DNA from: a virus | Virus genome (UHGV): UHGV-0208736 | DNA: 31,562 nt | Direction: 5' to 3' (one strand) | In this document: positions 1-25,364 of the stretch, one piece after another | How positions within the stretch are numbered: the stretch's first letter is position 1 | How the letters are laid out: every line of letters begins with the position of its first letter | Notes under the pieces: model-generated | The model's input: the letters and a program-made list of their open reading frames with translations, nothing else | Told to the model about the DNA's origin: nothing | Databases searched by the model: none | Program-made: the position numbers and the translations under genes

Positions 1-2238
1 ATGTCAAGCGGATGTGGTGACGTTTTAAGCCTGGCGGATTTACAAACCGCCAAGAAGCACCAGATTTTCGAAGCCGAGGTTATCACCGGTAAATCCGGGG
101 GGGTCGCAGGCGGGGCTAATATCGATTATGCGACTAATCAGGCTACTGGACAGACACAGAAGACACTCCCTGCGGTGTTGCGGGACGCCGGGTTTACCCC
201 ATCATCATGGGATTTTTCAACCGGCGGTACGTTGACAACCGACGACCGTAATAAAGTAGTATACGACTCGGTAAGTATGACATGGTATTCGTACGCCGGT
301 GGGCTTCCGGTTACCGTTCCGGCAGGATTTGATCCAACGGGTGATGCTAACTGGAAGCCCGAGGCGGGGGTTACCGTAAAAGACTGGGCTAATTCTGTAT
401 TCCGAAAAATCCAGCTGATAAAAGCTGGTGGAAGCTTTCAGACGGGGGGAACCGCCACCGCCGGGGTATCCGCGTTACTTAATACGGCGGATGGATACTA
501 CTATACGCCGAGGTCTGGCGCGGTAACCGTCCCTGCTGGTAGCTCCCCCGATGAAGGATGGGAATGCGTTGGGTTAATGGCTGGGTTTGAAATTGATGAT
601 TTACGGAATTGGGGTGAGGTTGTACCAGGCCAGGATATCATGCCTCTTCTGAAAACCGCATACGGATTAACCCCTAATAAAATAACCATTCCGCCGGGGG
701 AGCATAGAATTATCCTCACAGATACTCTGGACCCTGTCAGGAATGAAACATATCCTATGGGGCTGAGAATGACCCGTCAAAATATAGACATCGAATTTTC
801 TGCCGGTGCGTCTTTAAAAATGGATGCGGTAGATTCTGAGCGATACGTAATCATAGATGCGTATTACGCCCATAACTCAAAAATAAGTAAACCGGTTATT
901 ATAGGTGATGTTGAGACCCACCCCGGAAGCACTGGTGAGTGGGGCTGTGGCATCCGCAACTTCAACAGTAGCAATCTTGTGATTGATTCGCCAAACATCA
1001 GTTATTGTTGGGGTGACGGTATCCTTTGGTTCATTACCGACGACCAACAGTACGGGGGTGCAATCACAGGTACTGGGGTATACACCCGCTGCCGTAGGCA
1101 GGGTATAAGTGTTATCTCATGTCGTGGTTTATATATTGAGGATAGTGTAGGGGTTAATATTCAAGGGGCTTCGGCGGGTCCGTGGGCTACTATTGACGTG
1201 GAGCCCGACGTATCTTCTGAGTTTATCATTGACTTAGTAATAGGCTCTGTACGTGGTGTTAATAACGCGGGACCCGCACTCCTGTTTGCGGTACACCAGC
1301 TTACCGGTGCGTCACAGCCCGTGAACATTACCGTAGGGTCCGTATCATCTATTGGATGCCAACGCTGTATAGAAATCCGTGGCGACGGAGGCGTGTCCGG
1401 AACCATTACTGTTGACTCTGTATTCGGTCGCAATAGTAAAGCTCAGGAATTACAGACTGTTAAGTGGCGAGATGACTGTAAGTTCCATATTCGTAATATG
1501 ACTAGTTTGAACTGTAATCAGAATGGCGATACTTCATCTCCGTACGGTGTTGCTGTAGGTATTTACAATAACTATGCTGGTGGCACCGCCGGCGGTATTA
1601 CGATTGAGAACCTGAACATAATTAATCGCACGACGACGCTAACACACCCTATCGCCATTACCAACACTATAGCAGGTAATGTGGGTAGCTATACCTTCAA
1701 TAACATTACATATGACCGCAGCAAGTTTACCTATCCTGAGGTTCATAACCCAGCCGCCGCGGGTATCCGTACAAACTCAAAAATTTATCAGGAGTTCACT
1801 TCTTCCGGAACTGTTACTAACTCGCGCTGGTGTAATGAGGTGCGTAACACTAACGCTACATCGGCTATAGCAGTTACTATACAATCTGGGTATGGTACAG
1901 ATGAAATGCAATTTACCTGCTACAACACATCAGGTAATCAGATGAATTTCATCTTTGCGGATATGTTGGAGGCGCGCACTACCGAAGTTCGTAGCACTGC
2001 CGCCGGGAAGATGATTTGCAAGAAGCTATTAAATACTTGGAGTATCGATACCGTGCGAGGCGAGTTCTTTAGCGCAAACGGCACCGGACGCTTCAGTTAC
2101 GGGCTAAACGAAGGCGGCACTACTGCTAACCGGCCTAGCCAGCCTTACGCATGGCAGAAGTATTTCGATACTACTCTCGGCTATGAAGTTATCTACCGTG
2201 GTGATACCTTTGCTTGGGTTAAGGCTTCTGGCGCTTAA
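1..2238 (+). CDS. tailspike / tail fibre protein with predicted right-handed beta-helix (pectin-lyase-like) receptor-degrading domain; N-terminus may continue upstream of the window
   Basis: 745-aa ORF beginning at window position 1; Gly/Asn/Ser/Thr-rich repetitive rungs typical of beta-helix (NLVIDSPNISYCWGDGILWF, GISVISCRGLYIEDSVGVNIQGAS, ITIENLNIINRT); stop TAA 2236-2238 followed by hairpin terminator. Confidence 0.55.
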   Translation: MSSGCGDVLSLADLQTAKKHQIFEAEVITGKSGGVAGGANIDYATNQATGQTQKTLPAVLRDAGFTPSSWDFSTGGTLTTDDRNKVVYDSVSMTWYSYAGGLPVTVPAGFDPTGDANWKPEAGVTVKDWANSVFRKIQLIKAGGSFQTGGTATAGVSALLNTADGYYYTPRSGAVTVPAGSSPDEGWECVGLMAGFEIDDLRNWGEVVPGQDIMPLLKTAYGLTPNKITIPPGEHRIILTDTLDPVRNETYPMGLRMTRQNIDIEFSAGASLKMDAVDSERYVIIDAYYAHNSKISKPVIIGDVETHPGSTGEWGCGIRNFNSSNLVIDSPNISYCWGDGILWFITDDQQYGGAITGTGVYTRCRRQGISVISCRGLYIEDSVGVNIQGASAGPWATIDVEPDVSSEFIIDLVIGSVRGVNNAGPALLFAVHQLTGASQPVNITVGSVSSIGCQRCIEIRGDGGVSGTITVDSVFGRNSKAQELQTVKWRDDCKFHIRNMTSLNCNQNGDTSSPYGVAVGIYNNYAGGTAGGITIENLNIINRTTTLTHPIAITNTIAGNVGSYTFNNITYDRSKFTYPEVHNPAAAGIRTNSKIYQEFTSSGTVTNSRWCNEVRNTNATSAIAVTIQSGYGTDEMQFTCYNTSGNQMNFIFADMLEARTTEVRSTAAGKMICKKLLNTWSIDTVRGEFFSANGTGRFSYGLNEGGTTANRPSQPYAWQKYFDTTLGYEVIYRGDTFAWVKASGA

Positions 2239-2244
2239 AACTAA

Positions 2245-2268
2245 GGCCCCAAACGGGGCCCTTTCTCT
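2245..2268. terminator. bidirectional rho-independent terminator between convergent tailspike and minus-strand replication operon
   Basis: GGCCCC-AAAC-GGGGCC hairpin (2245-2260) followed by CTTTCTCT on plus strand; on the minus strand the same hairpin follows the TAG stop of the small ORF ending at 2267. Confidence 0.6.
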
Positions 2269-2404
2269 ACTCTTCTGATAACTTCTCCAGTACAAACGCC
2301 AGTTGCGCATTAGCCGCGTCTCTTCGCTGGCGTAGTCGTAGAACCTCTTCTTCGAGTTCCTTGATACGTTTTTGCAATGCCGGAATCGGGGCTATGATGT
2401 TCAT
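2267..2404 (-). CDS. unannotated 45-aa coiled-coil / leucine-zipper-like peptide (MNIIAPIPALQKRIKELEEEVLRLRQRRDAANAQLAFVLEKLSEE)
   Basis: ATG 2404-2402 overlaps the TGA stop of the upstream TOPRIM gene (ATGA); GAGGA-type SD about 10 nt upstream; heptad-like hydrophobic spacing; ends at TAG abutting the terminator; below the 60-aa cutoff of the ORF track. Confidence 0.35.
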   Translation of the reverse strand: MNIIAPIPALQKRIKELEEEVLRLRQRRDAANAQLAFVLEKLSEE

Positions 2405-2916
2405 CTGGTAAATTTCCTCGCAAGATACGTTATTTCTTCTTCACAAAGTTCATCAAGGTCGTTAGATACAAATCCTCTGGTGAATGTTTTGCTGAACTTT
2501 AATCCGGCTTTATCATTGTCACCAGCGCACACCCATTCATACGGCAAAAGTGACATTTGCTGCCGTAAATCGGCGGGTATATTCGACCCAAGTGCGCTTA
2601 CAGCATTGAACCCGCAATTCATCAAAGCAACAGCTTTAAATATGCTTTCGGTAACAAATACGGTCCCGCTTTCCGGAAGGTATTCCAACCCCCATAAACA
2701 AGGTCTTGTTGTTCTGGTGAAGTACCGCGCGTCTTTAGGGTTTTTACAGTTCTTTTCAGCATGTGGCTTGTAATGCTGGTATCCGCGTAGCCTACCGTCA
2801 AAGCCCCACAAGTAGAATGTAGCAACGCCAGGGGCTAAGACTACCCGGAGACGGTCGGCGTCAAACCCACGCGCCAGCAGATGAGCTTTAAGTAGAAACT
2901 CTTCGAAATCCATCAT
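2401..2916 (-). CDS. TOPRIM-domain protein (DnaG-like primase catalytic core fragment)
   Basis: 171 aa; conserved Glu in VFVTESIFKA and DxD in WVCAGDNDKAG match the TOPRIM signature; start ATGATG overlaps helicase stop (ATGA). Confidence 0.5.
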   Translation of the reverse strand: MMDFEEFLLKAHLLARGFDADRLRVVLAPGVATFYLWGFDGRLRGYQHYKPHAEKNCKNPKDARYFTRTTRPCLWGLEYLPESGTVFVTESIFKAVALMNCGFNAVSALGSNIPADLRQQMSLLPYEWVCAGDNDKAGLKFSKTFTRGFVSNDLDELCEEEITYLARKFTR

Positions 2917-4337
2917 TTCTTACCTCGTCTCTTCATGTAATTAAGCAATTCTTCCTGTACCGATTTCTTCTCGTCTGTACGCGCGGCAACAACCTCGTCC
3001 AGCGTGTCTTTAGCAACGATGTGATAGAGGAATACCGGGCGTTCGTGGCCTGCCTGCTTCTGGCGGACCGGGCCTATACGCTCGACAACCTGCAAATAGT
3101 GCTCAAGGTTCCAGCCTTGCGAAATAAACGCCAGATGGTGACCGCCGTCCTGTAAATTCAAACCATGCCCGGCTGACGCAGGATGCACGCATAAGATTTC
3201 GATTTCGCCTCGGTTCCACGCCTCCATCTGCTTATTACCCTTCGCACCTTTAGAAAATGCCTGTGCCTGAGGGAATCGCTTAAGGATGCGTTCCAGTTCG
3301 TGCTTAAACTGATAGGCCACCAGTAACGGCGCACCCTGTAACTCCTCGACAATGGATTCCAGCGCATCCAGTTTCGTGTCATGAACTTTCTCCCAGTCTT
3401 TTGTTGCTTCGCCGTCCGGCCCTGATATGTACACTGCGCCGGATGCAATCTGCAAGCACTTCGACGTCTTCGCCGCTGCGTTAGCTGCTTCAACTTCTCC
3501 GCTTTCCAGCTCCGCGAATAGCTTCTCTTCCATGTCGATGTACGCCTGACGTGCTTTTTTCGGCAGGTCAATTTCAACCGGCACGATAATCGGCGCTTCA
3601 CACCCAAACCACTCGGCGGCGTCAATCGTGAGGCTGATGTCTTTCATCTTCTGGTGAATTTCGTTATCGGCGCCCGGGCGTGCGTGATACTCGCGGGCCA
3701 TCGCCGACTTACCTTTCTGTACAGAGTTAAACCATCGGTCGGTGAATGCCGTGTACGAAGAGCCGAGGCGCTCGCCTGCATCGATAAACCAGTTCTGACC
3801 CCACAAGTCCTTGAGGCCGTTTGGTGATGGCGTACCCGTCAGGTTAATGAAGCGCTTAACCTTTCCGAACGCCACTTTGCTAAGCGCCTTTGCCCTCTTG
3901 CTACCACCAGAACGGCTACGGAACGATTTCAGCTTCGTGCTTTCATCGGCAACGATAACAGTAAAAGGCCAGTCGTCTTTGCCGTAGTAGTCAATCAGCC
4001 ACTCGATAACTTCGTAGTTTGTACACACCACGTTAGCGTCTGACTCCAGCGCCGCGATACGGCGCTTCTCTGAACCTGTCGCATCGACGACGCTCAGACA
4101 TGGGAATTGCCATTTCTCTTGTTCCGCGGGCCATGTACCCGATGCAACGCGCAACGGGGCGAGGATTAACACCCGGTCCTCTTCCGTAAGCTGCCCGTTG
4201 CGGAACAGGCGGTTTAGAACCCACATTGTCGACGAGGTCTTGCCGCCGCCCATACCGCACCATATATTGCAACGTGGGTGCTGTAACATAAACGACGTCA
4301 TTATTTTCTGATATTCCCTGCGCCTAAACTTACTCAT
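2913..4337 (-). CDS. ATP-dependent DNA helicase, superfamily 2 (SNF2/DEAD-like)
   Basis: 474 aa; Walker A GMGGGKTS, DExx-like box IVADESTKL; start ATG overlaps stop of upstream HNH gene (ATGA); SD GGGGAG upstream. Confidence 0.7.
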   Translation of the reverse strand: MSKFRRREYQKIMTSFMLQHPRCNIWCGMGGGKTSSTMWVLNRLFRNGQLTEEDRVLILAPLRVASGTWPAEQEKWQFPCLSVVDATGSEKRRIAALESDANVVCTNYEVIEWLIDYYGKDDWPFTVIVADESTKLKSFRSRSGGSKRAKALSKVAFGKVKRFINLTGTPSPNGLKDLWGQNWFIDAGERLGSSYTAFTDRWFNSVQKGKSAMAREYHARPGADNEIHQKMKDISLTIDAAEWFGCEAPIIVPVEIDLPKKARQAYIDMEEKLFAELESGEVEAANAAAKTSKCLQIASGAVYISGPDGEATKDWEKVHDTKLDALESIVEELQGAPLLVAYQFKHELERILKRFPQAQAFSKGAKGNKQMEAWNRGEIEILCVHPASAGHGLNLQDGGHHLAFISQGWNLEHYLQVVERIGPVRQKQAGHERPVFLYHIVAKDTLDEVVAARTDEKKSVQEELLNYMKRRGKK

Positions 4338-4831
4338 GCCTTGAACTCCCCGAAGTATATTTCCGCGGCTCTTTGGTATACGCGCGACGCTTCTTCTATA
4401 GTGTCAAAATAGCCAAGGTGGATGTATTTGTTATTGACGCCTATTCTGGCGCGCCACCTGCCAGAGGGTATTTGGTAGACCCCTATCGCACCGCTAGTGT
4501 TATGTGGTGAGCAGTCTCGGTTCTGAATCTGCTGGCTCCTGGTTGCTGGCCTTATATTATTTATGGCGTTATTAGCCCTGTTACGGTCTTTATGGTCAAG
4601 CTCACCATTATGATATTCTCCGTAGACGAAAGCCCATGCCAGATGGTGGGCTTTTATTCTTACACCGGAGACCGTAATAACTATGTATCCTTTGTCGTTT
4701 GGTCCCCCGGCTACCTCCCCCGCATTTCTACCTTTTATGCTTACTTTCCGTGTAAATATGCCTGTTTCGGGGTCATAGTTAAGAAGACGTTTCGCCTCCT
4801 CAATATCAGGCCTTCTAGTTAATTTACTCAT
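4334..4831 (-). CDS. HNH homing endonuclease with AP2-type DNA-binding domain
   Basis: 165 aa; HNH core HHLAWAFVYGEYHNGELDHKDRNRANNAINNIRPAT; AP2-like GVYQIPSGRWRARIGVNNKYIHLGYFDTIEEASRVY; ATGA overlaps on both sides. Confidence 0.8.
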   Translation of the reverse strand: MSKLTRRPDIEEAKRLLNYDPETGIFTRKVSIKGRNAGEVAGGPNDKGYIVITVSGVRIKAHHLAWAFVYGEYHNGELDHKDRNRANNAINNIRPATRSQQIQNRDCSPHNTSGAIGVYQIPSGRWRARIGVNNKYIHLGYFDTIEEASRVYQRAAEIYFGEFKA

Positions 4832-5049: not shown

Positions 5050-5334
5050 TTAACTATAATAGTTAGCTATTAGGTCGTCAACCTGTTTAAACGAACCAAC
5101 GACAAAAACATTTGCGCCACGTTTACGCATACGCTCGTGTTCTCGTAACTGGTGCGGGTCAGGTTTCGTGTTTTCGTCTTTCTTCACCTCTACGAACCAG
5201 ACGGTGCCGCCGGGGAGAATTACCAGCAGGTCGGGGGCGCCGGAACGCCCCTCGTACGAAAGTTTACGAACGAGGCCGCCCAGGGCCTCGAATCGCTCTT
5301 TTGCGTATTTCTGTACGCGTCCCTCTTTAGTCAT
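5050..5334 (-). CDS. VRR-NUC domain nuclease (PD-(D/E)xK superfamily)
   Basis: 94 aa; PDLLVI...VWFVEVKK...PHQLREHERMRKRGANVFVV matches VRR-NUC D...E-x-K pattern. Confidence 0.7.
   Translation of the reverse strand: MTKEGRVQKYAKERFEALGGLVRKLSYEGRSGAPDLLVILPGGTVWFVEVKKDENTKPDPHQLREHERMRKRGANVFVVGSFKQVDDLIANYYS
5053..5081 (-). promoter_or_regulatory. sigma70-type promoter P1 (minus strand): -35 TTGACG, 17-nt spacer, -10 TATAGT; contains 20-bp conserved core AACTATAATAGTTAGCTATT (plus 5052-5071)
   Basis: Reverse complement reads TTGACG-N17-TATAGT; the 20-bp core is identical to 11861-11880 and near-identical to 9362-9381; lies at the 3' end of the VRR-NUC gene immediately upstream of gene 4828..5019. 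Confidence 0.5.
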
Positions 5335-5483
5335 GGCCGCAGAATCCAGGTAATGAAAGCCCCGCCCAGAAGGGCAACACCGACAAACTTAAAGAACAGG
5401 CTATAACAGAACACCGCGGCTATTCCTGCACCGAGTAGCAGTGCCAGCATGGTTACTGTCGTCCAAAATACAAACATTGTCAT
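5331..5483 (-). CDS. unannotated 50-aa hydrophobic (membrane) peptide
   Basis: MTMFVFWTTVTMLALLLGAGIAAVFCYSLFFKFVGVALLGGAFITWILRP; ATGA overlap with upstream ORF stop and with VRR-NUC start; GGAG 10 nt upstream; below track cutoff. Confidence 0.4.
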   Translation of the reverse strand: MTMFVFWTTVTMLALLLGAGIAAVFCYSLFFKFVGVALLGGAFITWILRP

Positions 5484-5674
5484 AATAAAGGCTCCGCGTC
5501 CGGGTTACGCAGGAAGTACGCTTGGTAGATGTCGTGCTCCGTGTAGTAAACACCTTTGTGCGTACACCCGGCGCACGCATCGCTAAAGAACCCATCACCC
5601 ATTACCATGATAAATTCCCATTCCGGCATATCCACCAACGCAGCCAGTTTCTTACTAAATTGTTTGTTACTCAT
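5480..5674 (-). CDS. hypothetical protein (64 aa from ATG 5674; the track start at 5683 is GTG)
   Basis: MSNKQFSKKLAALVDMPEWEF...; GAGGGG SD upstream; ATGA overlaps at both ends. Confidence 0.45.
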   Translation of the reverse strand: MSNKQFSKKLAALVDMPEWEFIMVMGDGFFSDACAGCTHKGVYYTEHDIYQAYFLRNPDAEPLL

Positions 5675-5760
5675 AATACGCACCCCTCGCGTTTCGTATG
5701 TTCAATCCCGCAGCGCGGACAGATTCGGCAGTCTTCTTCATAGAACCAGTAAATTTTCAT
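5671..5760 (-). CDS. unannotated 29-aa Cys-rich peptide, possible zinc ribbon (MKIYWFYEEDCRICPRCGIEHTKREGCVL)
   Basis: CxxCxxC...C spacing; ATG overlaps upstream stop (ATGA) and its TGA overlaps the next ATG; weak SD so translation would rely on coupling. Confidence 0.3.
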   Translation of the reverse strand: MKIYWFYEEDCRICPRCGIEHTKREGCVL

Positions 5761-5888
5761 TCCAGCACCCACAGATAAATTGCGATAAACATGCCAAATA
5801 CGGCAACCATCATGCCGTATTGACCCTCGTGACAGTAGACACCGGCGGCGAATCCAGCCAGTACTGCGATAATCAGTTTACTTAGCAT
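5757..5888 (-). CDS. unannotated 43-aa hydrophobic (membrane) peptide
   Basis: MLSKLIIAVLAGFAAGVYCHEGQYGMMVAVFGMFIAIYLWVLE; ATG at 5888 lies 8 nt inside the 3' end of the DNA polymerase gene with AGAGGT SD 7 nt upstream. Confidence 0.35.
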   Translation of the reverse strand: MLSKLIIAVLAGFAAGVYCHEGQYGMMVAVFGMFIAIYLWVLE

Positions 5889-8148
5889 AACGGTACACCT
5901 CTTCCCCGGCCCATGTTAGTGGGAACCCTTTGGCCCATTCAGGTAATGAGCATAACAGGTCGCCCATCTCTTTAACCGTGTACTCCGGTGTGTCTGGTGT
6001 TTCGGCGACACACTCATCGTGTACGTGAAGTACAATTGGGTAGCCCGCTGCCTCGACCGTCAGGAGTCCGTTGACCAGTAAATCACGGCACAACGCTTGA
6101 ATGATGTTTTCACACAATTTTCCGCCGTGTGTGTACAAAGTCGTCCACTGGCGGGTGGTCTGATTTTCGCCCTGGTATTTAATGCGAACGTTAGTTGTTA
6201 CGCGCCCATCCTCGTCGGTCTCTTTAGTGACGCTTAAACCTATACCAGGGTAGGACATGATGCGCCCAGACGGCAGTTCCACACACAACCACCAACCCGG
6301 CACAAAGTTACCCTGTCTGTCTTTCTCTTTAGTACGCCAGATGCGAATAGCCCTGTCGCCGTTAAGGCGTACTCTGGCCCCCGCCCAAAACTCTCGTCCC
6401 GGATTTCTGATTGCAGCAATCACCGAATCCTTAAGGTCGTTCCAGAATCTCACTGTTTCCGGATGGGCCTCGCGCCACATGCGCTTGATAGCGTCGCAAG
6501 TGCGCCAGACTTCCTTAGGCAACACGTAAGAGGCCCGTTCGTCCTTTTTACCAGGTTTTGGCGGCCGCTTAGCCTCCTGAATCCGCGCCCATTCATAGCC
6601 TCGGGCAGTGGCGGCCCATATATGGTCAGGGAATGTCCCCCGCATTGTCTCCGTCATTTTAAAGAGGTCCAGCCCATAAGTTTTAGCCATAGTCATGAAG
6701 GCCCCTACACCTCCCTCGTAGCCGAGGCCCAGCTCGCAACATTTCCCGACCTGTCGTAGGTCTTTACGGGTGGCTTTCAGCTCTATAGGATCCATGCCAA
6801 ACATCTTGCCCGCAGTGGCGCAATAAATATCAATCCCCGCGCGGAACGTCTCAAGGGCAGATGTCTCCCCCGCCGTCCAGGCTAACCCACGGCCTTCCAC
6901 GTTCGAGTAGTCGGCAACGAGTAACTTATTACCTTTTTCCGGGATGATGCAGCTGCGGACAGTCGAGGCCGTTAGCTTAGATACATCAAAACGGCGATGC
7001 GCCCGGCCCTTTAAAAGCAAATTGATGCCGAAGGATAGCGGGTTAAGCCTGCGGTTCCAGTCTTCGTCGGACTCCCACGGCTGGCGTACGAGTTTCTTTT
7101 CCTCGTTAGTCGGGTCGTCGTGGTAGTACCCACGCGACAGGTTCTGCGGCTGGAACCCTTTGCCCGCAAATCGTAAAGTGCGCTTTGCCCCACCGTACTG
7201 GATGCAACCACGGCGTCGTCCGTCTTTGGACCGTCCTAGCAGGAGCGGTTTATATTTTGTTGACGCCGTGGAGGCCGCGCCGAGGCGCATCTCAATGATT
7301 GTGCGCGCATCGTTAGGTAAGTCGTCGTCCTCTAGCAAACCTTCGAGCGTTGCTTTCTGCGCATTATAAATATTGTAGGCCGGTGCCAGTTCCCGAAGGA
7401 TTGGCAGGAAGTCTTTGCCCGTTAGCTTCCCGCCAAATTTCGCGCGGGCCTCGTTTTTTAGCTCTTGCTTGTGACGTTCAACTGCCGCGACCGCCGCCTC
7501 AGCAAGAGCCGTATCGACAAAGAAGCCTCGGTCGTTGATTAGCTGGTCCAGTTCCAGTACACGGTCTTCGAACTCAGAGTTACCCCAACGCGGCAGCTTA
7601 TGGAAGACCTCACGCATTGCAGTGATGTCGCTTACGGCGTACTTGATGAACAGCGCCCACTCGTCCGGGTGTGTTTCCGCGGTGTAGCGACGGATTTTGT
7701 AGTTCTTCGGCGTCGGTTTAGAGAAACGCTGAATCAGCGCCTTGCCCCGCTTATCTTTCGCGTTGTCCGCAGATACTCCCAGCACTTCGCATAATGCATC
7801 GAGTGAACCCGGCAGCGCGTGGCGAAACGCCCAAATCATCGTATCAATGGTGTTGCTTACCGGAATATCAAAACCCCAGCAGTGCTTCATGATGAGCCTA
7901 TCGAACATTAAAAAGTTATGGCCCACGATTTTCATACGTCCGCGCATAACATTACGGAGCGCCATGCGTAGGCTTATTGGCATTACTGGTTCGGAAGTGC
8001 AATCCCATACTTCTACTGGACCATCATCAACGGCATACGTACAAATTATAACCTCTGTCGTTGGGTGCTCCGCATACGCATACGACCCGACTTTCTTTAA
8101 GTCTGCTTCGGAGAATGTCTCGGTATCCAGGTATAATAAACTAGTCAT
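5878..8148 (-). CDS. DNA polymerase, family A, with N-terminal 3'-5' exonuclease domain
   Basis: 756 aa; Exo I motif YLDTETFS; polymerase motif A LLVADYSNVEGR; motif C VLHVHDECV; AAGGAA SD upstream of ATG 8148. Confidence 0.85.
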   Translation of the reverse strand: MTSLLYLDTETFSEADLKKVGSYAYAEHPTTEVIICTYAVDDGPVEVWDCTSEPVMPISLRMALRNVMRGRMKIVGHNFLMFDRLIMKHCWGFDIPVSNTIDTMIWAFRHALPGSLDALCEVLGVSADNAKDKRGKALIQRFSKPTPKNYKIRRYTAETHPDEWALFIKYAVSDITAMREVFHKLPRWGNSEFEDRVLELDQLINDRGFFVDTALAEAAVAAVERHKQELKNEARAKFGGKLTGKDFLPILRELAPAYNIYNAQKATLEGLLEDDDLPNDARTIIEMRLGAASTASTKYKPLLLGRSKDGRRRGCIQYGGAKRTLRFAGKGFQPQNLSRGYYHDDPTNEEKKLVRQPWESDEDWNRRLNPLSFGINLLLKGRAHRRFDVSKLTASTVRSCIIPEKGNKLLVADYSNVEGRGLAWTAGETSALETFRAGIDIYCATAGKMFGMDPIELKATRKDLRQVGKCCELGLGYEGGVGAFMTMAKTYGLDLFKMTETMRGTFPDHIWAATARGYEWARIQEAKRPPKPGKKDERASYVLPKEVWRTCDAIKRMWREAHPETVRFWNDLKDSVIAAIRNPGREFWAGARVRLNGDRAIRIWRTKEKDRQGNFVPGWWLCVELPSGRIMSYPGIGLSVTKETDEDGRVTTNVRIKYQGENQTTRQWTTLYTHGGKLCENIIQALCRDLLVNGLLTVEAAGYPIVLHVHDECVAETPDTPEYTVKEMGDLLCSLPEWAKGFPLTWAGEEVYRYAK

Positions 8149-8614
8149 GGCAATAAAATTCCTTATGCAGTTTTTCTCTTAATTTCTTTACCGCGCTTTC
8201 TGCTTCTTCAAGAGTTCCGTAGCTACCAGCATTGTAACTTTTGTAGTTAAAGTGTACCCGCCCATAAAATCGGTTGCCGTTTTTAACTACTCCCTTAACT
8301 CCCGTTCTAGCTCCCTTATTTTTAGCGTTTCGCACATTATCTGCGGTGGTTGCTTTCCTTAGGTTAGAAATCCTATTGTCTAACCTGTCTCGGTTTATGT
8401 GGTCAAGAGGTCCCTCGGGCCATTCACCGTACTCGAAAAACCAAGCAAGCCTGTGGGCCATGTAATATCTGCCCATATAAGGTATTCGCCAGTATCCACT
8501 ACTATTGATGCATCCTGCGATGTCTCCAGGTTTTCCTCGTCTGTACGTAGGTTGTATCCATGTGAATATCCCGGTTTCTCGGTTATAGCTAAGAAAATCT
8601 TTTATATGTTCCAT
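8141..8614 (-). CDS. HNH homing endonuclease with AP2-type domain (start taken at ATG 8614; the track start at 8638 is TTG)
   Basis: HNH core MAHRLAWFFEYGEWPEGPLDHINRDRLDNRISNLR; AP2-like GVKGVVKNGNRFYGRVHFNYKSYNAGSYGTLEEAESA; AT-rich relative to neighbours; stop overlaps polymerase start by 8 nt. Confidence 0.75.
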   Translation of the reverse strand: MEHIKDFLSYNRETGIFTWIQPTYRRGKPGDIAGCINSSGYWRIPYMGRYYMAHRLAWFFEYGEWPEGPLDHINRDRLDNRISNLRKATTADNVRNAKNKGARTGVKGVVKNGNRFYGRVHFNYKSYNAGSYGTLEEAESAVKKLREKLHKEFYCHD

Positions 8615-8626
8615 TCTGACTCCGGT

Positions 8627-8649
8627 AAAAAGGCCCAATGAAGGGCCTT
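8627..8649 (-). terminator. rho-independent terminator on minus strand after the SSB-like gene
   Basis: Minus-strand RNA: AAGGCCC-UUCAUU-GGGCCUU followed by UUUACC; 20 nt downstream of the TAA at 8669-8671. Confidence 0.45.
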
Positions 8650-15385: not shown

Positions 15386-15772
15386 ATGAATCTTAAAGCA
15401 ACTGTCGTAGCAGGAGCATGTTTCATCATCCTGGCTTACGCACACGGCATCTACCAGTATCGCAGCGGCTGGAACGAAGGCCGGGCGAATCTCGTTTCGC
15501 AGCAACAGCAGAAAGCACAGGCCGAGTTAGCGAAGAAAACACAACGGCAGCAGCAGAACGAATCGAAGGCTGCAGCCGCTGACATCGAAGGCAAGACGAA
15601 ATCAGAGGTGATTACCCGTGAAGTCGTTAAGTACATTAAAACGCCTGGTCGCAGCGTGTGCACTTTCGATGATGCTCGCGTCCTGCTCAAGTCCCGCGCC
15701 GTCGCAAACGCCAATTCCATCCCCGGATACGACGATGATGCAGCCGCCGTGCAAACTGGCCGCGCCAAGTAG
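15386..15772 (+). CDS. i-spanin (Rz-like inner-membrane spanin subunit)
   Basis: 128 aa; N-terminal TM segment ATVVAGACFIILAYAHGIY followed by Gln/Lys/Ala-rich coiled-coil periplasmic domain; strong SD GAGAAAGGGGG; contains embedded o-spanin gene in another frame. Confidence 0.6.
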   Translation: MNLKATVVAGACFIILAYAHGIYQYRSGWNEGRANLVSQQQQKAQAELAKKTQRQQQNESKAAAADIEGKTKSEVITREVVKYIKTPGRSVCTFDDARVLLKSRAVANANSIPGYDDDAAAVQTGRAK

Positions 15773-22514: not shown

Positions 22515-23015
22515 CTATTTATAACCGTTGTTGAATGTTGTCAGCCCGTGGTTTATGTGGAATTTATTGGCTACGGACATGTAAATTCTTTCCGCAAAAG
22601 CGTCCTCTATTCTGTCAAATGTTTTACTAATCTGCTTGCCATTGACAACGGCATACGCTCTCCACTTAGTTTTTCCTTTCCGCGCCACGCCAGTAACTCC
22701 AGAGGTATTATCTTTGCGCCTTTTCACGTTAACCATGTTGTCCCTTCTTGATTTGCAGGACAGGTTTTCAATTCTGTCATCACATGTATCATGGTTAGTG
22801 TGGTCTATGACAAATCCTTTCGGAATCTTACCTGAGAACATCTCATACACCACCCTCGACCTTTTAAACTTACGGTTGCCAAACATGACGTACCAATAGC
22901 CGTTTTTACACAAACTCCCAGCCACATCACCTACATTCACATCGTTACGGCGACACGATTTTACTTTCCAGTATAGGACGCCGTTTTTGTAGCTAAAAAC
23001 TTCGCTCCAGTCCAT
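22515..23015 (-). CDS. HNH homing endonuclease with AP2-type domain (third copy)
   Basis: HNH core GFVIDHTNHDTCDDRIENLSCKSRRDN; AP2-like GVTGVARKGKTKWRAYAVVNGKQISKTFDRIEDAFAERIY. Confidence 0.75.
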   Translation of the reverse strand: MDWSEVFSYKNGVLYWKVKSCRRNDVNVGDVAGSLCKNGYWYVMFGNRKFKRSRVVYEMFSGKIPKGFVIDHTNHDTCDDRIENLSCKSRRDNMVNVKRRKDNTSGVTGVARKGKTKWRAYAVVNGKQISKTFDRIEDAFAERIYMSVANKFHINHGLTTFNNGYK

Positions 23016-24223: not shown

Positions 24224-24415
24224 TCACTTCTCTTTAACGTTCGAGTTGCAAGCCCAGATTAAAATAAATACCCACGGCAGCAGAACCCAGCCAAGAAACA
24301 GATTAGCAGTGAATATCGCTAATTTCGCTTTATGGTCACGGAAGTATGCAACCAGGAAAGGCGCGAAATAAGCGAGCAGTGCAAACAGAATTAAGGAAAC
24401 TGGTAAACTGGACAT
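24224..24415 (-). CDS. superinfection-immunity-like small membrane protein (63 aa from ATG 24415)
   Basis: MSSLPVSLILFALLAYFAPFLVAYFRDHKAKLAIFTANLFLGWVLLPWVFILIWAC; two TM segments around a basic loop and an NLFLGW motif resembling the Imm/superinfection-immunity family (from memory); SD AAGGGG upstream of Met29 of the track ORF. Confidence 0.55.
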   Translation of the reverse strand: MSSLPVSLILFALLAYFAPFLVAYFRDHKAKLAIFTANLFLGWVLLPWVFILIWACNSNVKEK

Positions 24416-24432
24416 TTTAAACCCCTTCATTG

Positions 24433-24489
24433 TTGGTGTAAGTGAATAGTACCCTATTATATTGGGGTGCGCAAGTAATGTGATAGAAT
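24433..24489. promoter_or_regulatory. divergent promoter region: plus-strand TTGGTG-N16-TATTAT and TTGGGG-N16-TAGAAT; minus-strand TATAAT (plus 24456-24461) for the accessory island
   Basis: Seen directly; located in the 167-bp gap between the island and the tail chaperone gene; the minus -35 (ATCACA) is weak. Confidence 0.35.
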
Positions 24490-24582
24490 AATTTTGCACC
24501 TAGTGTCGCACACGAAAAGCGGGTGGTTCCCGTCTGGTGCATTTACCGTTAACCTGTAACCTCTTAACCAAAGGATTAAAGA

Positions 24583-24999
24583 ATGAAACTTTCAGATTTT
24601 TATTTCGAAGAGAAAGCACTGGTAGGCAAGAAGATGCCGATTCTGCTTCCAAACGGCGAAGACTCAGGGGAGTGGCTTAACGTTGTAAACCCTGATGCGG
24701 ATGTCGCCGTTAAAGCGGGGCGCGCTTTCATTATTGCGTACCGTCGCGGACTGGCGCGTTTCGAAGAACTGGAAAAAGCCGCCAAAGATTCCGGCGACTA
24801 TACTGAATATAACCTGGCGGTCAACGAACTGGCGGAAGACCTCAACCGGCAACTTGCAGCAGAAGTCGTAAACGGCTGGAGCTTTGATGAGCCTTTCTCT
24901 AAGGAAGCGTTTAACAAATTGCTGGACCAGTTCAAGGCCTTAGGCACACAGGTAGCAGCGTTCCATAACGCCGAGCGCAAAGCATTACAGGAAAAGTAG
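24583..24999 (+). CDS. tail assembly chaperone (gpG-like)
   Basis: 138 aa acidic protein directly upstream of tape measure gene; SD AAGGA; ends at slippery GGAAAAG-TAG. Confidence 0.55.
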   Translation: MKLSDFYFEEKALVGKKMPILLPNGEDSGEWLNVVNPDADVAVKAGRAFIIAYRRGLARFEELEKAAKDSGDYTEYNLAVNELAEDLNRQLAAEVVNGWSFDEPFSKEAFNKLLDQFKALGTQVAAFHNAERKALQEK

Positions 25000-25364
25000 A
25001 CGCGCTGTACAGGTTCGCCACCTACGAGTTTGTGGATAAGCATAAAATCAGAGAGTTTGATTCTATAGCTGACGGGCACGAACAGGCGCTTATCGCGATG
25101 GGTGTAATCGATAAGAAAAAACGTGCAGCGCGACGGGGTGGGCCAGAATGCCCGCCCCTTTTTATATCCACCTTTGAAACGTACTGTGACATTAAGTTTA
25201 CGCGACACGTGCGCGAGGACGCTGTAGTATTGTTTGCAAGAGAATCCGTTACGTGGCAAGACCTGAAAGCCTATCTCGATGTTACGCAAAAACAGCTTAG
25301 CCTGTTCGAGATAGACATTATCATGGGCTTAGAAGCAATCTTTGAAGGTAGAAATCATGGCTGA
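24969..25364 (+). CDS. tail assembly chaperone frameshift extension (gpT-like portion of a G-T fusion), -1 frame
   Basis: The -1 frame is open from 24969 to 25364, overlapping the last 10 codons of the G gene; no good in-frame ATG/SD of its own (the track start is GTG at 25032). Confidence 0.45.
   Translation, partial: RRAQSITGKVDALYRFATYEFVDKHKIREFDSIADGHEQALIAMGVIDKKKRAARRGGPECPPLFISTFETYCDIKFTRHVREDAVVLFARESVTWQDLKAYLDVTQKQLSLFEIDIIMGLEAIFEGRNHG

Follow-up and report, generated by a model that had tools for sequence, protein, structure and literature searches.

Genes of only a few dozen codons that are wedged between the replication genes of a phage raise the question of whether they are genes at all and, if so, what they contribute. 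This question is posed by the UHGV virus genome UHGV-0208736, whose whole analyzed stretch of 31,562 nucleotides (nt) is referred to here as the window and which is a Guernseyvirinae (Kagunavirus/Jerseyvirus-type) siphophage. On its minus strand (5888..5331), four open reading frames (ORFs) of 43, 29, 64, and 50 codons are situated between the gene for a family A DNA polymerase (8148..5878; 756 amino acids (aa) in the ORF list; phrog_17, E=3e-127), which is the upstream anchor of the chain, and the gene for a VRR-NUC-type nuclease (5334..5050; 94 aa), which forms its downstream end. They are named p43 (5888..5757), p29 (5760..5671), p64 (5674..5480), and p50 (5483..5331). A first-pass annotation had described them as a chain linked by ATGA overlaps, with the last running into VRR-NUC, and the sequence bears this out: ATGA forms the exact junction at p43/p29, p29/p64, p64/p50, and p50/VRR-NUC, i.e., four times in succession. 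The reading regarded here as rather probable is that the four micro-genes of the block are real and separate and belong to the long replication operon on the minus strand of this phage; they would be translated as a chain, and their roles are proposed conditionally below.

Coding evidence for the four micro-genes

The 558-nt block is covered to 99.5% by same-strand ORFs starting with ATG and having at least 29 codons, with three internal ATGA junctions. Coverage of 90% was attained by 0.64% of 5000 dinucleotide shuffles, not one of which contained two or more such junctions. Genome-wide in the window, ATGA overlaps were counted at 7 of the 15 minus-strand and 4 of the 17 plus-strand junctions (one of these GTGA); as ATGA is thus the standard junction in this genome, the style of coupling is not peculiar to the block. 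Relatives were represented by 79 IMG/VR loci retrieved via the VRR-NUC protein, plus GenBank loci. The check by conservation and dN/dS (ratio of nonsynonymous to synonymous divergence) that the first-pass annotation had proposed came out in favor of coding, with frames intact in 10-54 relatives and ratios of 0.08-0.20. Frame and length were kept in all homologs of p43 (47 of 47, 43 codons), p29 (54 of 54, 29 or 32 codons), p64 (10 of 10), and p50 (26 of 26), and the pairwise Nei-Gojobori estimates amounted to 0.20 for p43, 0.12 for p29, 0.08 for p64, and 0.18 for p50, compared to 0.14 for VRR-NUC, at a synonymous divergence (pS) of 0.21-0.40 in the same comparison. These results indicate that all four micro-ORFs are real genes under purifying selection at the protein level. 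In the alternative frames, most or all sequences are interrupted by stops and dN/dS amounts to at least 0.77, with one exception: the codon-complementary antisense frame, whose low ratio is an artifact of shared third positions and which contains stops in essentially all relatives. An antisense ORF of 109 aa (5556..5885) was rejected as a candidate gene, given stops in the antisense frames of most or all relatives and the codon-complementary origin of the one low ratio.

Frame-disrupting indels, which according to the first-pass annotation would speak against the ORFs, do occur and are rare, being limited to a few frameshifts or readthroughs in p43 and one fusion of p29 to p50; the ORFs are otherwise intact. 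Within 83 clusters of p43 matches, a handful, mostly single-contig assemblies, are frameshifted in the second half of p43 into the p29 frame. Fusion ORFs of p43 and p29 (72-73 aa) and of p29 and p50 (79 aa) as well as readthrough of the p43 stop were recorded in public assemblies (P0183, P0185-P0187, P0189, P0042, P0111), with p29 still being readable in both kinds of fusion. The rare length variants of p50 are in-frame deletions of three or five codons.

The entry into the chain differs from its internal junctions, as the polymerase gene and p43 overlap by 11 nt (ATGCTAAGTAA) and not by ATGA, with the polymerase stop lying inside p43. Both p29 and p64 are read here from ATG; a GTG four codons upstream of the p29 start gives rise to the 33-aa ORF of the program-made list, and the 67-aa ORF of this list is p64 read from GTG. 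Shine-Dalgarno (SD)-like motifs on the minus strand were located upstream of p43 (AAGAGGTG, 5896..5903; anti-SD duplex of -7.1 kcal/mol), within the 3' end of p29 (GAGGGGTG, 5681..5688; -8.1 kcal/mol), and upstream of p50 (GCGGAG, 5492..5497; -5.8 kcal/mol). The motif within p29 serves whichever gene comes next, i.e., p64 in the window and p50 or VRR-NUC in relatives. The own SDs of p29 (-3.7 kcal/mol) and VRR-NUC (-3.1 kcal/mol) are weak, and since they are so poor, translation of these two genes probably depends on reinitiation after upstream termination. According to the favored reading, ribosomes would be passed from the polymerase gene via p43, p29, p64, and p50 to VRR-NUC by means of the overlapping stop and start codons. 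A scan for promoters and terminators inside the block gave no sites above shuffle expectation, and an Rfam scan of the block yielded nothing above background. A sigma-70-like site (TTGACG-17-TATAGT, 10/12) was observed inside the 3' end of VRR-NUC (5081..5053, minus strand), directly upstream of a 30-nt gap and a 63-aa gene; the count of such sites in the region does not exceed shuffle expectation. The operon as a whole runs from a helicase-primase gene via two unknown genes, an exonuclease, a gp2.5-like single-stranded DNA-binding protein, and an HNH gene to the polymerase and the four micro-genes, followed by VRR-NUC, the 63-aa gene, another HNH gene, an SNF2 helicase, and a primase-like gene.

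The weak initiation signals allow for the explanation that translation of the four ORFs does nothing except ferry ribosomes from the polymerase gene to a weakly initiating VRR-NUC, with the peptides being functionless. Besides the poor SDs of VRR-NUC and p29, such a relay would account for the fact that in every architecture among the relatives, the following gene is again overlapped or else preceded by a spacer with an SD-like motif, and natural genomes can do without three of the four ORFs. The encoded peptides, however, are constrained at the amino-acid level as strongly as VRR-NUC at the above pS, which contradicts a pure relay role. The invariant ORF lengths, the invariant motifs LLLGAG in p50 and MPEWEF in p64, and the occurrence of p64 in unrelated phage families, conserved to 45-69% identity, speak against it as well, and this explanation is considered very improbable.

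The first-pass annotation had further expected three of these genes to be missed by standard annotation, which is true of part of the public record. Of the 445 p29-bearing records, a spread sample contained 26 annotated ones, 11 of which have no feature for p29; none of the micro-genes is annotated in the GenBank record of K1H, and p29 is skipped in that of SGP007 (L002, PV654122.1). The expectation did not hold for the gene families as such, because all four have full-length matches to PHROG profiles, namely p43 to phrog_10404 (E=6.5e-31), p29 to phrog_38225 (E=2.5e-22), p64 to phrog_25645 (E=2.1e-40), and p50 to phrog_14925 (E=1.6e-32). These are the same gene families, catalogued without a described function. 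Moreover, all four are annotated as ORF46-ORF43 in Escherichia phage phiWAO78-1, which carries these four genes arranged and overlapping in the same way and about 90% identical at the nucleotide level, without any substantive difference. This phage is also the best match to the 1-kb region (90.7% nucleotide identity), to which 319 phage records match at 80-95% nucleotide identity. In a transcriptome study of the Kagunavirus K1B4 (PMC12645636), the annotation comprises no more than 57 ORFs, and the micro-genes are not resolved. For the four peptides, Pfam and NCBIfam scans yielded nothing beyond sub-threshold noise (EMC6, PufX, CydH, anti-TRAP). Likewise, the name "Intrinsic membrane protein PufX" carried by an nr entry 100% identical to p50 (P0026) was not adopted, as the Pfam match reaches only E=0.042. 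Names in the SGP007 record look unreliable: a soluble 63-aa gene is called "holin", and a 684-nt gene at the position of the cytosine methylase is called "portal protein". A cytosine methylase is annotated at the position of this 684-nt gene in phiWAO78-1 and K1H.

Gain and loss of cassettes between polymerase and VRR-NUC

In 55 genomes (54 relatives and the window), the slot between the polymerase gene and VRR-NUC occurs in 16 architectures, throughout which the order p43, p29, p64, p50 is constant. The combination p43-p29-p50 was found in 16 genomes, p43-p29 in 13, all four micro-genes in 6 (including the window), and p43-p29-p64 in 3; further architectures comprise p29-p50, p29 alone, and variants with inserted HNH endonuclease genes. 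Junctions between micro-genes are 4-nt overlaps throughout, apart from one 7-nt overlap (L006). The junction with VRR-NUC is likewise 4 nt after p64 or p50, whereas after p29 it measures -1, -10, or -11 nt or is a gap of 67-486 nt. Overlaps that were rebuilt read ATGA or GTGA.

The joints themselves reveal how members come and go. The p64 cassette of the window measures 192 nt and lies between copies of the direct repeat TATTATGA, and genomes devoid of p64 read ...GTATT-ATGA-CAATG, with p29 joined straight to p50. Jerseyvirus-type genomes without p43 have lost it by an in-frame deletion that is bounded by short TGATTAT repeats and joins the first five codons of p43, along with its SD and the 11-nt polymerase overlap, to p29 (MLSKLIIYYF...). 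The start and SD of p43 are handed over to p29, which is therefore preserved and translated despite the loss of p43. Comparison of the relatives shows each micro-gene to behave as an independent cassette that is gained or lost with breakpoints at the ATGA, i.e., at microhomology such as TATTATGA; because the breakpoints fall on this junction, the coupling to the next gene is rebuilt. Furthermore, p29 is the only core member, being the sole micro-gene present in every Guernseyvirinae-type relative recovered, and p43, p64, and p50 are accessory. Records in the phage collection number 445 for p29, 224 for p43, 121 for p50, and 93 for p64.

Other contents of the slot were observed as well. In L009 (2415..2501), L060, and L028 (2421..2501), the place of p50 is taken by a peptide of 23-25 aa with a single transmembrane (TM) segment (MTMLTTIMIIVAVFLGVAVLSKVTD or MITIIAVLVALLLGAAIFSRIIG) that resembles the first half of p50, and VRR-NUC starts there without overlap and with an SD-like motif of its own. 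In the distant L069 (2003..2263) and L074 (2296..2505), whose polymerases are about 50% identical, the slot is filled by one protein of 69-86 aa, which combines a Cys-rich N-terminus (CxCNxNCNQGRxCP) and a C-terminal TM helix in one polypeptide, whereas Guernseyvirinae carry the Cys-rich p29 and the membrane peptides p43 and p50 separately. No sequence similarity was established between the Cys-rich domain of L069/L074 and p29. Homing-endonuclease genes land in the slot as well. On its minus strand, the window encodes three HNH endonuclease genes of phrog_99 that are paralogs of one another (4334..4831, 8141..8638, and 22515..23015), two of which flank the block from polymerase to VRR-NUC, and additional HNH inserts occur between the polymerase gene and p43 (L010, L032) and between p29 and VRR-NUC (L034, L036).

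Regarding the flanking genes, VRR-NUC is assigned to the phrog_93 endonucleases (E=1e-33) and is annotated as VRR-NUC in relatives, with its match to Pfam PF08774 (VRR_NUC) scoring 19.7 bits at a gathering cut-off of 23.8. The last 102 residues of the polymerase (window 5881..6186) are 98-99% identical in L002, L005, L014, L020, L038, and L048 and about 70-75% identical in the remaining loci of L001-L060. As this identity does not track that of VRR-NUC, a mosaic breakpoint is located in or near the 3' end of the polymerase gene. In L100 (IMGVR_UViG_2974591975_000001, 699..3797), the polymerase is a single 1032-aa ORF with an in-frame insert of about 280 aa, starting with CLHRH after ...RQIGKA and ending with ...VAHN before CELGLGY. 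The insert looks like an intein, and the window is uninterrupted at that site (RQVGKCCELGLGY); an HNH-like ORF of 247 aa (2132..2875) lies inside it in another frame. Far from the block, two plus-strand ORFs of the window (24583..24999 and 25032..25364) correspond to parts 1-138 and 152-259 of the tail-assembly-chaperone profile phrog_15027 and form the frameshift-linked pair of chaperone ORFs that usually precedes the tape-measure gene.

Putative roles of the soluble and membrane-type peptides

The core member p29 (MKIYWFYEEDCRICPRCGIEHTKREGCVL) indeed has the CxxCxxC...C spacing reported in the first-pass annotation, reading C11-x2-C14-x2-C17-x9-C27 around a CPRCG (CPxCG) knuckle. Its designation as a Cys4 peptide is not supported. 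Among 28 protein variants, 6 have R or F instead of C11, 2 lack H21, and 1 lacks C17, with C14 and C27 being invariant; none of the variants lacks two of the five candidate ligands. Since C11 is replaceable and H21, C14, C17, and C27 are better conserved, p29 is better read as a CPxCG knuckle with additional His/Cys than as Cys4; the canonical knuckle C14-P-x-C17-G is single, and the fourth ligand could be C11 or H21. Searches of p29 against PDB sequences gave nothing significant (best E=0.4, COX5B), with all weak matches being CPxCG knuckles of zinc ribbons including Nop10 and RpoM, and none of the curated zinc-ribbon models matched (best Pfam E=0.22; none in NCBIfam). Taken together, p29 is probably a metal-binding micro-protein of the CCHC/CCCC type. 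In the favored reading, it would bind metal and probably work on or with the co-translated replication and recombination proteins.

The second soluble member, p64, is acidic (isoelectric point of 4.8) and features the invariant motifs MPEWEF and RNPDA. Its AlphaFold2 (AF2) model is alpha-alpha-beta-beta-alpha with a pLDDT (predicted local distance difference test score) of 85. A zinc site was considered and dismissed, as C37 and H39 are not conserved. The family is narrow, with 15 clusters, and its profile recovered 10 proteins at E<=0.001 from 1.84 billion representatives. Seven of these are 60-78 aa long and aligned over most of the profile; the three long matches were treated as spurious, with only multiple short stretches being aligned. 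The profile found nothing significant among PDB sequences, and a Foldseek search of BFVD returned only uncharacterized homologs. Outside Kagunavirus and Jerseyvirus, homologs with 45-69% identity occur in Jedunavirus (Klebsiella), Yokohamavirus MSW-3 (Edwardsiella), and the Drexlerviridae phage IME542, in addition to vB_SenS_SE1 and several IMG/VR lineages (three with neighborhoods: L101, L103, L104), all of them in the replication module. The homolog adjoins a phrog_93 VRR-NUC-type endonuclease gene in MSW-3, IME542, L101, and L103, often with a 4-nt overlap. It adjoins an SF2 helicase gene in vB_SenS_SE1 and L104 and is three genes away from the helicase in Jedunavirus. This recurrent neighborhood, the sole lead toward a function, suggests p64 to be an optional accessory of an SF2-helicase/VRR-NUC module. 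Because it travels with helicase and nuclease genes in unrelated phages, p64 may be conceived of as a portable, soluble accessory factor of this module.

The description of two further members as hydrophobic membrane-type peptides agrees with the hydropathy of p43 and p50, whose grand averages are 1.44 and 1.68, respectively. In p43, a conserved polar loop (YCHEGQYG) divides two hydrophobic stretches, a layout that fits a helical hairpin. In p50, LLLGAG and GG are invariant, and K32 is the sole conserved polar residue. AF2 modeled p50 from a 28-sequence alignment as a single helix of 47 residues (2-48; pLDDT 94), and natural in-frame deletions are situated at residues 25-29 and 34-36. One or two TM segments may be present in p50. 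Homologs of both peptides were found only on Guernseyvirinae-type contigs of 40-45 kb.

The location of p43 and p50 between polymerase and nuclease genes of a replication operon could mean that one or both of them tether the replication machinery to the inner membrane, perhaps via p29. The co-translation of p43 with the Cys-rich p29 and the union of a Cys-rich N-terminus and a TM helix in the slot protein of L069 and L074 would be in line with this, the Cys-rich domain of the latter, however, having no established sequence similarity to p29. Such anchors would be expected neither to be missing from about half of the p29-bearing records (p43, 224 versus 445) or to be present in only 121 records (p50), nor to be lost as cleanly as p43 was from Jerseyvirus-type phages that retained p29. 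In addition, both peptides are almost wholly hydrophobic and offer no soluble domain for binding DNA or protein. Since p43, p50, and p64 are naturally dispensable and p43 and p50 lack a soluble domain, an anchoring role is judged very unlikely.

According to the favored reading, p43 and p50 would rather be dispensable inner-membrane micro-proteins which most likely modulate a membrane protein or process of the host (exclusion, host takeover) and not the replication of the phage. A more definite assignment as host-directed membrane effectors, acting in superinfection exclusion, as modulators of host membrane proteins, or as growth-arresting toxic peptides, is conceivable and at present doubtful. 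Both peptides combine a small size and strong hydrophobicity with small-xxx-small packing motifs (GAGIAA, GG), as are typical of contacts between helices, they are polymorphic for presence or absence in close relatives as accessory host-interaction genes typically are, and the p50 slot may hold the 23-25 aa single-TM peptide instead. Nevertheless, the PHROG, Pfam, and NCBIfam scans detected no similarity of p43 and p50 to known exclusion or toxin families, and a gene for immunity to superinfection already exists elsewhere in the window. No match of either peptide to the superinfection-immunity family phrog_1039 was obtained. The gene in question, a 91-aa ORF on the minus strand (24224..24499), matches phrog_1039 ("immunity to superinfection") at E=3e-23 and represents a candidate gene for exclusion that is encoded at a distance from the micro-genes.

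The size and TM content of p43 and p50 also resemble those of class II/III holins, and one public record calls a nearby small gene "holin", so that a holin- or antiholin-like function in lysis timing was considered. This role was rejected: the lysis cassette, marked by an Rz-like spanin gene on the plus strand (15386..15772), is about 10 kb away from p43 and p50, which belong to the minus-strand replication operon, are missing from many relatives, and do not possess a charged C-terminal tail. The "holin" of the SGP007 record is the different, soluble 63-aa gene, from the same record in which the gene at the cytosine-methylase position is named as a portal gene. A function in lysis timing is thus regarded as extremely improbable.

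Several points weigh against the reading of four separate genes with the roles proposed above. The frameshifted p43 assemblies may be sequencing errors or may reflect a real loss of an accessory cassette. The translational coupling along the chain is deduced from the geometry of the genes, the link of p64 to nuclease and helicase from gene neighborhood, and the putative zinc binding of p29 from a residue pattern with an atypical ligand set of one knuckle plus scattered Cys/His. Most Guernseyvirinae have VRR-NUC and no p64, and any partnership of the two is therefore optional. Finally, the p50 deletions around residues 25-36 suggest a tolerant middle or turn, as opposed to the one helix predicted by AF2. 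A bolder version of the reading with four real genes would treat the slot as a plug-and-play micro-gene array in which ATGA microhomology automatically rebuilds coupling, and p29 and p64 as dedicated cofactors of enzymes of replication and repair. In this version, p29 would be a metal-binding micro-subunit or regulator, present universally and cooperating with polymerase or nuclease, and p64 a portable partner of VRR-NUC and SF2 helicases across several phage families; this is put forward tentatively and as rather unlikely in its entirety.

Comparison with known phage systems

The block provides a well-sampled case showing that phage replication operons can harbor real genes under selection with as few as 29-50 codons. 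Annotation often passes over such micro-genes, with p29 being featureless in a large share of public records, and they act as cassettes that are swapped exactly at overlapping stop and start codons. The universal 29-aa Cys/His peptide and the 64-aa companion of VRR-NUC and helicase are thereby tractable targets for studies of micro-protein cofactors of phage DNA metabolism.

With regard to position, a parallel is provided by the class II small genes 5.3-5.9 of phage T7, which are situated between the genes for DNA polymerase (gene 5) and exonuclease (gene 6). The T7 small genes serve host takeover and anti-defence, with gp5.5 acting on H-NS, gp5.7 on RNA polymerase, and gp5.9 on RecBCD. In both cases, an operon of DNA metabolism accommodates several very small and for the most part non-essential genes in a row from polymerase to nuclease. 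Still, the analogy is positional only, as there is no sequence similarity and the T7 proteins are soluble, none of them being membrane-embedded or Cys-rich. The proteins p16.7 and p1 of phi29 are membrane proteins that organize replication at the membrane and have soluble domains binding DNA or terminal protein. They are similar to p43 and p50 in being small membrane proteins encoded alongside replication genes, whereas p43 and p50 are essentially bare hydrophobic helices and missing from many relatives that keep the polymerase and VRR-NUC. AcrZ, CydH/YnhF, and T4 Imm are small inner-membrane modulators or exclusion proteins that bind larger membrane proteins. They are comparable to p43 and p50 in length (30-80 aa), in the number of TM helices (one or two), and in having packing motifs of glycine and alanine, but show no significant sequence similarity to them (CydH, E=0.025, sub-threshold).

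For p29, the systems to be compared are the small zinc-finger phage regulators Mu Com and P2 Ogr and the CPxCG zinc-ribbon micro-proteins. The CPxCG knuckle of p29 follows an aromatic, beta-like stretch, as it does in zinc ribbons (COX5B, Nop10, RpoM), and p29 is very small with four to five potential ligands. Zinc ribbons normally use four Cys/His ligands arranged as two CxxC-type knuckles; p29 differs by having one canonical knuckle, with the lone Cys27 and Cys11 or His21 as its other candidate ligands.

Regarding the gain and loss of its members, the block corresponds to the concept of Hendrix and Juhala, in which mosaic joints of tailed phages fall at gene boundaries and classical morons bring along their own promoter and terminator. 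Like morons, p64, p50, and p43 are single-gene insertions that some genomes have and others lack; their boundaries are exact, and the genes on either side adjoin each other in relatives. Unlike morons, these cassettes have no promoter or terminator above background and plug into a coupled chain at the ATGA. Since swappable accessory cassettes of this sort are already catalogued as "hypothetical proteins", the block is an ordinary and tidy case of phage genome organization and no new kind of system.

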